Source of the DNA: an uncultured Gammaproteobacteria bacterium
GTDB taxonomy: Bacteria > Patescibacteriota > Patescibacteriia > VMEV01 > CAYQCH01
Length of the DNA: 64,000 nucleotides
Assembly: GCA_964503955.1 (NCBI GenBank)
Contig: CAZDCG010000001.1
Span: 2,962 to 66,961, forward strand
Direction of reading: 5' to 3'
The position numbers and the translations under genes were made by a program. Under the pieces are notes generated by a model. It had not been told where the DNA came from. It did not search any database and was given only the letters and a program-made list of their open reading frames with translations. This document shows, one piece after another, positions 30,536 through 31,975 of the stretch; position 1 is the stretch's first letter, and each line of letters begins with the position of its first letter.

Positions 30536-30890
30536 GCCCCCGGTCGGACGGAGGCTCTGTCTCCGTCCTAGTTCCTTCGGGTCGCAGACGAAGCCTGCGA
30601 CCGACAAGATTATAACGGGCGGAGATGGAACCTCCGCCCGACACATCGTTTTGCACCGTCAGACGGAGGCTCCTTCTCCATCCCATTTGTCGGACGGGGG
30701 CTCTGTCCCCGTCCTAGTTCCTTCGGGTCGCAGACGAAGCCTGCGACCGACAAGATTATAACGGGCGGAGATGGAACCTCCGCCCGACACATCGTTTTGC
30801 ACCGTCAGACGGAGGCTCCTTCTCCATCCCATTTGTCGGACGGGGGCTCTGTCCCCGCTCTAGTTCCTTCGTCAACCGGGTTTACCCGTC
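30536..30890 (+). repeat. REP array, ~147-bp unit x ~2.5, each unit = 3 hairpins (GACGGRGGCTCTGTCYCCGTC; GGTCGCAG-acgaagc-CTGCGACC; GGGCGGAG-atggaac-CTCCGCCC)
   Basis: Periodicity read directly: H1 at 30543, 30689, 30836. The ORFs on both strands here are translation artefacts. Confidence 0.8.
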
Positions 30891-31442
30891 ATACTCTGCG
30901 CAAAGTAAGGGAAAGTCCATGAGATTATTCTTGTTCAGACGTTGGCGCGCTGAACTATACAACCATTCCTCGGGATGAAAAACATACCCCTTTTTCACTG
31001 GATTATTCCAAATATATTCAGCTTTCTGCCTAAAGAATCTCTCGGATTGAATAAGAATAGGACAGTTATTTTCTTGCCAAAGCTGAAAATCATTTATCTT
31101 CTTTTTCTCTTTTGAACCTATCAAGTTCCAGACAAGATGATTCCTATGATCTTTTTTAATGGCTTTATAGACTTCTTTTGTTGTAAAGCATTTGAAATCT
31201 CTCAAAATTTTATCCAACCCAATTCCCTTTTTACCGGCTCTTGCAAGAAGGTGGATATGATTTGTCATAAAAACATACTCATACAAAATCAACCCTTTCT
31301 CTTGCATGCAAAATCTTAGAGAATCAGCCAGAATTGAGAAATACTTGGTAGACGTAAAAACATCCACCCAATCAAGCACAGTGATCGTCACAAAGTAACT
31401 TTCGTGGGATAATTCTCTTTCAATTCGTGGCGACGGACACAT
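30882..31442 (-). CDS. REP-associated tyrosine transposase (RAYT; IS200/IS605-like Y1 HuH transposase)
   Basis: HuH motif MTNHIHLL. C-terminal RAYT signature IWNNPVKKGYVFHPEEWLYSSA (catalytic Tyr). 186 aa. Flanked on both sides by the REP arrays. Confidence 0.8.
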   Translation of the reverse strand: MCPSPRIERELSHESYFVTITVLDWVDVFTSTKYFSILADSLRFCMQEKGLILYEYVFMTNHIHLLARAGKKGIGLDKILRDFKCFTTKEVYKAIKKDHRNHLVWNLIGSKEKKKINDFQLWQENNCPILIQSERFFRQKAEYIWNNPVKKGYVFHPEEWLYSSARQRLNKNNLMDFPLLCAEYDG

Positions 31443-31506
31443 AAAAAGCCCTCATCCAAGGGATGTGGGCTTAGAAATATTATAGCATAAAATTAGATGA
31501 ACCAGT

Positions 31507-31975
31507 AGGACGGGGCTCCGGTCGGTCGGACGGAGGCTCTGTCTCCGTCCCTATTTCATGTCGATACCGGGCGGAGATTGAACCTCCGCCCGACGCATAG
31601 TTTTGCGCCGTCTGACGGGGGCTCTGTCTCCGTCCTGATTCCTTCGGGTCGCAGACGAAGCCTGCGACCGACAAGATTATACCGGGCGGAGATTAAACCT
31701 CCGCCCGACACATCGTTTTGCACCGTCTGACGGGGGCTCTGTCTCCGCCCCAGTTCCTTCGGGTCGCAGACGAAGCCTGCGGCCGACAAGGTTATACCGG
31801 GCGGAGATAGAACCTCCGCACGACCATATCGTTTCCACCGTCGGACGTGGGCTCTGTCCCCGTCCTAGTTCCTTCGGGTCGCAGACGAAGCCTGCGACCG
31901 ACAAGATTATACCGGGCGGAGATAAAATCTCCACCCGACGCATCATTTCCCCCGTCAGACGGGGGATTTGACGAA
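31507..31975 (+). repeat. REP array, ~122-bp unit x ~4 (same three hairpins, unit lacks the spacer segment of the downstream array)
   Basis: H1 copies at ~31527, 31598, 31727, 31843. Same orientation as the 30536..30890 array. Confidence 0.8.

Follow-up and report, generated by a model that had tools for sequence, protein, structure and literature searches.

A probable REPtron: a RAYT gene between arrays of REP hairpins in a 64-kb stretch of Patescibacteria DNA

A 64-kb stretch of contig CAZDCG010000001.1 (the window, by which we mean the whole stretch analyzed here) carries a gene for a REP-associated tyrosine transposase (RAYT, also called TnpA-REP) that is bracketed by arrays of short hairpins with the character of repetitive extragenic palindromes (REPs). 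We consider it highly probable that this locus is a REPtron, in which a single RAYT gene sits amid its own REPs. An earlier examination of the DNA letters (hereafter the sequence-only reading) had described a RAYT between REP hairpin arrays, and our data bear this out: the protein scores above the cutoff of the RAYT model NF047646, its catalytic residues are invariant among homologues, its top structural match is the TnpA-REP structure 4ER8, and the hairpins resemble the REPs of RAYT subclass 2.4.

The RAYT gene (30882..31442, - strand) encodes a protein of 186 aa. The HuH (HIH) motif and the NPVKKG/YSSA signature ascribed to this open reading frame (ORF) by the sequence-only reading are both present, as NHIH at residue 61, YIWNNPVKKG at 143 and YSSA at 162, with WQ at 122-123; H62 and H64 make up the HUH pair, and Y143, within YIWNNP, is the catalytic tyrosine. 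The curated equivalog model of NCBIfam (NF047646, REP_Tyr_transpos) recognized the protein at 93.6 bits against a cutoff of 80 (E = 1e-26), with the match spanning model positions 8-146 of 146. In an alignment of 41 sequences (the RAYT and 40 homologues), N61, H62, H64, Y143, N147 and P148 were invariant, and Y143 aligned with the catalytic Y115 of Escherichia coli TnpA-REP (4ER8). The top PDB match of an AlphaFold model built on the homologue alignment (pLDDT 87.6, pTM 0.84) was 4er8_A, TnpA-REP bound to a REP hairpin (E = 1.3e-8, TM 0.66/0.73), followed by the transposases of ISDra2 and IS608. The protein belongs to the RAYT family and retains the family's catalytic residues and fold; by analogy, it is probably catalytically active. 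No REP insertion lies in frame within its ORF. An AT-rich segment (31443..31505, - strand), which from its sequence is probably the leader of the gene, holds a TATAAT box and, 8 nt ahead of the ATG, a Shine-Dalgarno-like GAGGG; a consensus scan of this leader gave no full -35/-10 match, and a promoter/terminator scan around the gene gave nothing decisive. Neither the exact protein nor a 96%-identical fragment (P0001) had a match in the assembly collection.

Hairpins of three subtypes flank the gene. Pattern searches allowing up to 3 mismatches (each with 0 matches in 100 shuffles) found H1 (GGACGGGGGCTCTGTCCCCGTCC) in 8 copies, a solitary one at 10462-10484 included, H2 (GGTCGCAGACGAAGCCTGCGACC) in 5 and H3 (GGGCGGAGATNNAACCTCCGCCC) in 6. 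All three are 23-nt GC-rich hairpins with stems of 8-9 bp and loops of 7 nt, and GTC stands directly against the stem in 21/21 copies (GTCG in 16, GTCT in 2 and GTCA in 2). This foot lies 5' of the stem on the + strand for H1 and for its degenerate form H1', and on the - strand for H2 and H3. When copies are oriented by their feet, all stems fit GGNCGNNG/CNNCGNCC and the 7-nt loops line up (GCTCTGT, GCTTCGT and GTTCCAT), whereas the loops seem unrelated when all are read on the + strand. Since foot orientation aligns both the stems and the non-palindromic loops, we read H1, H2 and H3 as variants of one REP, with the archetype GTC-GGNCGNNG-N7-CNNCGNCC and the loop GYTYYRT, and no longer as the three "distinct" hairpins described at first. 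A covariance model built from 20 oriented copies retrieved exactly 21 copies from the window, at 35.7-45.1 bits, with the next-best match at 13.8 bits; a regular-expression scan (~0.06 matches per shuffle) agreed with it.

The array on the 3' side of the gene (30543..30871, the left-hand array) consists of 2.3 units of 146 nt, each laid out as H1, 11 nt, H2, 14 nt, H3, 22 nt, H1' and 5 nt, and ends after its third H1, 11 nt short of the RAYT stop codon. Tandem Repeats Finder returned the same interval (period 146, 2.3 copies, 97% matches), with 99% identity between the two full units. Its members are H1 on the + strand at 30543..30568 (GTC foot and hairpin, 44.4 bits), 30689..30714 (45.1 bits) and 30835..30860 (damaged 3' arm, 39.0 bits); H2, with its foot on the - strand, at 30580..30605 (43.6 bits) and 30726..30751 (found by both pattern and covariance model); and H3, likewise with a - strand foot and with GGG/CCC at the stem bottom, at 30617..30642 (43.1 bits) and 30763..30788 (pattern and covariance model). 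The fourth hairpin, the degenerate and H1-like H1', stands on the + strand at 30658..30683 (GTCA foot) and 30804..30829, at 35.7 bits each, and its presence accounts for the 31-nt difference between these units and the 115-nt units on the other side.

The array on the 5' side (31525..31966, the right-hand array) comprises an H2-less unit at 31525-31609, three 115-nt units (H1, 11 nt, H2, 14 nt, H3, 22 nt) and a truncated terminal H1 arm. Here Tandem Repeats Finder reported 31564-31965 (period 115, 3.5 copies, 87% matches), and unit alignment places the start at 31525, counting the incomplete first unit, for a tandem repetition of ~3.8x compared with 2.3x on the left. The H1 copies, again on the + strand, are at 31525..31550 (44.0 bits), 31610..31635 (GTCT foot and one G-T pair, 39.8 bits), 31725..31750 (GTCT foot, 37.7 bits) and 31840..31865 (40.1 bits). 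On the - strand, H2 occurs at 31762..31787 (41.5 bits) and, by pattern and covariance model, at 31647..31672 and 31877..31902, and H3 at 31569..31594 (42.2 bits), 31684..31709 (41.9 bits), 31799..31824 (one stem mismatch, 39.4 bits) and 31914..31939 (degenerate, 36.3 bits). The right-hand units share 73-90% identity with the left-hand unit. In the first of them an 18-nt linker, CTATTTCATGTCGATACC (31551-31568), takes the place of the 11 nt, H2 and 14 nt, and this may be the footprint of a REP loss. A degenerate H1-like 5' arm with the canonical GTAG foot (GTAGGACGGGGCTCCGGTC; 31506..31524, + strand), identified by sequence and alignment, adjoins the RAYT leader. In all, 20 REPs lie on the two sides at most 640 nt from the gene, and every copy at the locus is extragenic, between the terminator at 32005-32026 and the start of the next gene at 30445.

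These data refine the first description of the arrays. There are two of them, as proposed, but the unit sizes of ~147 and ~122 bp become 146 and 115 nt, and the outer coordinates, drawn a few bases too wide, become 30543-30871 and 31525-31966. The term "direct arrays" suits the units, which do repeat directly, but not the hairpins within them, whose feet are on the + strand in H1/H1' and on the - strand in H2/H3. With feet on opposite strands, each unit is a mix of REP and inverted REP, resembling a bacterial interspersed mosaic element (BIME), and the 99% identity of the two left-hand units points to recent local duplication, whether by enzyme or by slippage; the arrays as a whole may have been amplified by either route. 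We rejected CRISPR-like or simple direct-repeat arrays, as the locus has no unique spacers and its hairpins occur in both orientations, and the arrays matched no RNA family in Rfam.

Folded as single-stranded DNA, the units form three separate hairpins of 8-9 bp in both minimum-energy and centroid folds, at -35.2 kcal/mol for the 146-nt unit (z = -4.75) and -25.8 kcal/mol for the 115-nt unit (z = -3.66). Across copies, 93% of stem cells were paired and 3/8 pairs had changed on both sides; the observed covariation score was reached by 0/500 shuffles, and shifting the pairing partners lowered pairing to 45-60%. Because the copies are related by duplication, these statistics indicate maintained structure rather than independent events. 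The arms of H1 (GGACGGGG) and H2 (GGTCGCAG) are non-complementary and cannot pair together, so that the unit is not a REPIN (a REP doublet folding into one hairpin) in the strict sense.

One REP lies apart from the locus. The solitary H1 that the sequence-only reading placed at 10459 is indeed there (10459..10484, + strand, 42.0 bits), 20 kb from the RAYT gene, extragenic within the intergenic region at 9.9-11.2 kb and upstream of a small GIY-YIG-like reading frame. That frame (10024-10320, downstream of the solitary REP) seems to belong to a GIY-YIG-like gene split over two frames, with FYVYIMTNKPNGVLYIGVT... in one and the C-terminal part in the other; a GIY-YIG gene is also found near the RAYT gene of a homologous locus, L012. 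Beyond the window, the H1 pattern had 0 matches in 185,579 species genomes, and its single match in JGI metagenomes (L001) was unrelated, an isolated hairpin on a GC-rich contig. H2 was absent from viral contigs, and H3-like matches in the viral contigs L017 and L018 had no RAYT nearby.

This distribution bears on whether the system still works. The locus could be an inactive relic whose REPs are no longer mobilized and whose arrays grew by replication slippage or unequal recombination: 20/21 copies are at the locus, the 99% identical tandem units on the left are what recent local duplication predicts, and several right-hand copies are decaying. We nonetheless think a relic unlikely, given a full-length ORF with every catalytic residue intact, compensatory changes that keep the stems paired, and a copy that reached a distant extragenic site.

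RAYT homologues place the locus in a broader setting. We found 710, many from Patescibacteria, Peregrinibacteria and Bacteroidota, several of them already labeled RayT by JGI; the closest full-length ones are 52-57% identical to the window protein. In L002, L005 and L012, all from the candidate phyla radiation (CPR), the RAYT gene is likewise bracketed by hairpin-repeat arrays. Since these arrays carry a different repeat, the REPtron layout is common in the clade while the REP sequence varies by lineage; the window does not contain the motif CAACATGGAGCC of the relatives, which likewise marks REP sequence as lineage-specific. In these three relatives, a near-identical core lies on both sides of the gene (L002, 4788-4884 and 5571-5784; L012, 119-199 and 857-887; L005, 5628-5828), although the RAYT proteins are only 52-79% mutually identical. 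REPs are normally species-specific, and such conservation of a repeat core is unusual for them. The L005 gene (~5001-5582) also contains an in-frame insertion of ~45 aa after the HuH motif. Copies of the locus's own REP core, lying in both orientations, encode it (AGSM from GCTGGCTCCATG, MEPA from ATGGAGCCAGC).

Two other homologous loci differ in kind. The L009 gene is flanked, in inverted arrangement, by runs of a 9-nt repeat (GGAYCGTAA; 9805-9852 and 10697-10753) that recurs in intergenic DNA elsewhere in the 20-kb stretch (2199-2255, 2928-3165 and 18332-18397), a dispersed repeat of another kind than hairpin REPs. At L004, a perfect 44-bp direct repeat (4822-4865 and 5648-5691) brackets the RAYT gene, and the same metagenome-assembled genome (MAG) has a second RAYT gene, L003, a hint that the gene was recently duplicated or moved within this MAG.

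Several observations weigh against reading the locus as a REPtron. The canonical GT[AG]G foot does not occur in the 21 REP copies, all of which have GTC. Against Pfam Y1_Tnp (PF01797), the check proposed by the sequence-only reading, the protein reached 20.2 bits, just under the gathering score of 23 (E = 6.8e-4), in a partial match (residues 38-100); NCBIfam's model, which is more specific, gave a clear pass, and most RAYT homologues carry a precomputed PF01797 match. The repeat of L002, L005 and L012 is CTCCACGTRCAACATGGAGCCAGC, unlike the window REP, and because the closest RAYT relatives, at 52-54% identity, use another repeat, the cognate link between this RAYT and its REPs rests on adjacency and on likeness to subclass 2.4 REPs. 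Dispersal, a defining property of REPs, is barely shown, as there is one outside copy in 64 kb (1 in the ~62 kb beyond the locus). The papers we consulted gave no activity data for any subclass 2.4 enzyme.

Some of these points would also suit a RAYT gene that had landed in or beside a pre-existing array of hairpins that are not its substrates, whether those of another RAYT or terminator or structural repeats. Such an event would fit the different repeat motif of the closest relatives, the sharp step in GC content from 37% in the gene to 61% in the arrays, and the identical unit order and orientation on both sides, as if an AT-rich gene segment had split one array. Even so, cognate REPs on both sides of the gene are the rule for the RAYT family (PMC6006769), a layout that recurs in L002, L005 and L012. 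The hairpins match the REP type of the very subclass indicated by the protein motifs, no second RAYT-like ORF exists in the 64-kb window, and related genomes are without any such hairpins. We therefore regard insertion into a foreign array as very improbable and continue to favor the REPtron.

The host is, by its gene content, a Patescibacteria (CPR) bacterium with a reduced genome. The window's LepA shares 81% identity with unnamed metagenome proteins and 65-72% with proteins of Parcubacteria, Uhrbacteria and other Patescibacteria, and RNase P RNA, two tRNAs and housekeeping genes are also encoded, which together mark the window as CPR chromosome. Two syntenic contigs, L013 and L014, were reached via the sigma-factor neighbor of the block. 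They share with the window the gene order Mfd, sugar transferase, glycosyltransferase (GT), PDZ, sigma, DUF5667, ~1205-aa protein, TPR and 547-aa protein. From the large gene to the TPR gene, L013/L014 have 142 bp with a terminator as its sole content, whereas the equivalent gap in the window is 1634 bp, occupied by the REPtron (a ~1.6-kb block). The intrinsic terminator of the upstream 1217-aa gene (32005..32026, - strand) is the outer boundary of the system and not part of it, and an equivalent terminator alone fills the empty L013 site. REPs of the window type numbered 0 in L013-L016. The short gap in relatives and the absence of such REPs there identify the block as a lineage-specific gain or loss. 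Beside the REPtron, at 28975-30445, the window has two overlapping adjacent TPR paralogues (281 and 221 aa), where L013 has a single 239-aa TPR gene.

The RAYT gene has a GC content of 36.9%, against 49.2% for the whole window and 61% for the arrays. Low GC is seen in all nine loci examined (the window and L002-L012), with the RAYT gene 5-12 points under the surrounding DNA in 9/9, and for that reason it does not discriminate between gain and loss; we rejected it as proof of recent transfer. A rival reading is an autonomous insertion sequence (IS) like those of the IS200/IS605 family, with gene and hairpins (as left and right ends) moving as one element. In its favor, a syntenic relative has none of the 1.6-kb block at the equivalent intergenic site, the GC content of the gene is 12 points under that of its host, relatives are patchy across CPR and Bacteroidota, and one MAG has two copies (L003 and L004), one of them within a perfect 44-bp direct repeat. 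Yet loss explains the absence in the relative equally well, and the low GC is a trait of the family. The protein scored 14.8 bits against the cutoff of 55 for the IS200/IS605 model NF033573, while the RAYT model accepts it, and TnpA-REP is its best structural match; each flank is a tandem mosaic of several copies in both orientations instead of a single subterminal hairpin, and a hairpin copy stands alone 20 kb off with no gene attached. An autonomous insertion sequence is, in our judgment, most unlikely. It is also improbable, if less so, that the whole REPtron (gene and REPs) was recently gained as a unit and that we see the very start of a REP invasion, with 20 copies at home and one abroad. 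If true, this would run contrary to the literature, in which REPtrons are held not to be mobile as units, and would offer a natural system, in a genome of ~1 Mb, for watching the founding of a REP population.

If the locus is a REPtron, a mechanism can be modeled on the TnpA-REP of E. coli, Stenotrophomonas and Marinomonas (PMC8266576). The RAYT, a Y1 HUH endonuclease, would bind a REP hairpin formed by single-stranded DNA and recognize the GTC/GTCG foot 5' of the stem; with a metal ion held by H62 and H64, Tyr143 would cut a flanking dinucleotide and form a 5'-phosphotyrosine link, and rejoining of strands by the enzyme would move or amplify REPs. In this way, the BIME-like unit (an H1 REP, then inverted H2 and H3) would have multiplied into the tandem arrays that flank the gene. 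In Marinomonas, the foot picks the cut site by complementarity, so that GTAG directs cleavage at CT and GTGG at CC (PMC8266576). Under this guide rule, the GTCG foot predicts cleavage at CG here. Judging by GC skew and gene orientation, the - strand sequence may serve as the lagging-strand template, on which the feet of H2 and H3 would then be presented. We infer that the REPs are substrates of this RAYT and that the enzyme could have produced the arrays.

Two further features of the window lie away from the REPtron. The last 14 nt of tRNA-Thr(CGT), GCCAGGTGGCTCCA, is present four times at 26436-26830, at a period of 76 nt. A 62-nt spacer containing a GC-rich inverted repeat (CCCGCC...GGCGGG) follows every copy, and a fifth copy of the spacer is found at 26789-26824; these could be reiterated att-like duplications or a second family of hairpin repeats. 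The lowest GC of the window, ~35% in a 561-nt sliding window, is at ~4772-5506 and overlaps a 244-aa ORF.

Nearly all work on REP/RAYT systems concerns Proteobacteria; surveys extend to Cyanobacteria and Bacteroidetes. In our literature search we came upon no description of REPs or REPtrons from Patescibacteria (CPR), although automatic pipelines already label many CPR proteins RayT. The sequence-only reading had thought a complete RAYT/REP system in a reduced genome notable; the CPR host stands, but it is less remarkable than it seemed, because CPR metagenomes contain many homologues, which automatic annotation already names RayT or transposase. The locus extends the host range of a known system as an ordinary example that leaves the understanding of such systems unchanged. 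Nor is its GTCG foot new, having been cataloged in Chloroflexus aggregans (subclass 2.4) and in Runella (subclass 2.6) (PMC6006769). What the window offers is a fully parsed locus: its single enzyme is intact, its 21 REPs fall into three related subtypes with a uniform GTC(G) foot, and the syntenic site in a relative is empty. It provides a simple set of substrates on which to test how the cleavage site is chosen by the guide foot.

Among known systems, the transposases of the IS200/IS605 family (IS608, ISDra2) share with the window RAYT the HUH/Y1 fold, and the two systems would be alike in single-strand hairpin recognition and in a guide tetranucleotide 5' of the stem. The window locus differs in being without a single left-end/right-end pair, and its hairpins are multi-copy and also occur gene-free. 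In the REPINs of Pseudomonas fluorescens, said to have been described by Bertels and Rainey in 2011, two REPs reportedly pair into one long hairpin. The window resembles them in having inverted neighbors, H1 and H2, 11 nt apart with feet outward beside a RAYT gene, but differs in that the arms of these neighbors are non-complementary and the unit folds as three separate hairpins.

The REPtron of E. coli K-12 (4ER8, with Y/Z2 REPs in BIMEs) provides the best structural match and the same arrangement of a single gene with REPs in both orientations around it. BIMEs consist of a REP and an inverted REP with linkers, often in tandem (PMC8266576), and the BIME-2 arrays of E. coli parallel the window in their REP/iREP mosaic units, short linkers and tandem repetition. 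The sequence identity between E. coli TnpA-REP and the window RAYT is only 16%, and the guide-contact residues E100 and R104 correspond to P128 and Q132 in an ungapped alignment. E. coli REPs are longer, have a required bulge and a strict GTAG foot, and number ~600 dispersed copies, compared with one dispersed copy in the 64-kb window.

The closest likeness is to subclass 2.4 (Group 4 of Bertels; Quentin et al. 2018), whose members have the motifs NH[IFV]H, WQ and YIxNNP and a mean length of 194 aa (PMC6006769). Their hosts are Cyanobacteria, Bacteroidetes and scattered phyla, and their REPs have G-C pairs at the stem foot and the form GTAG-GGGC...GCCC (PMC6006769). The window departs from this subclass in its host phylum, Patescibacteria, and in a foot that is GTC(G) in every copy and not GTAG. 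The consensus Y-motif of the clade, YIHNNP, fits subclass 2.6 too, and the relatives' repeats have a GCTG foot, which is common in subclass 2.6. On motifs rather than a tree, we favor subclass 2.4 over 2.6 for this RAYT: it has NHIH, WQ and YIWNNP in 186 aa (against the mean of 194), its short, GC-rich REP hairpins are perfect and have G-C pairs at the stem foot, and more than one REP subfamily flanks the gene, several flanking subfamilies being present in nearly half of REPtrons (PMC6006769). In-frame REP insertions in the gene, a frequent though not obligatory hallmark of the subclass, occur in the relative L005. The published Table S1 lists GTAGGGGC... REPs 104 times and gives GTAGGGGCGGAATCCATTTCCGCCC for Chlorobium and GTAGGGGCGGACCTGTGTGTCCGCCC for Nitrosococcus (PMC6006769), and the Chlorobium/Nitrosococcus REP nearly equals the window H3 as read on its foot strand, GTCGGGCGGAGGTTCCATCTCCGCCC.

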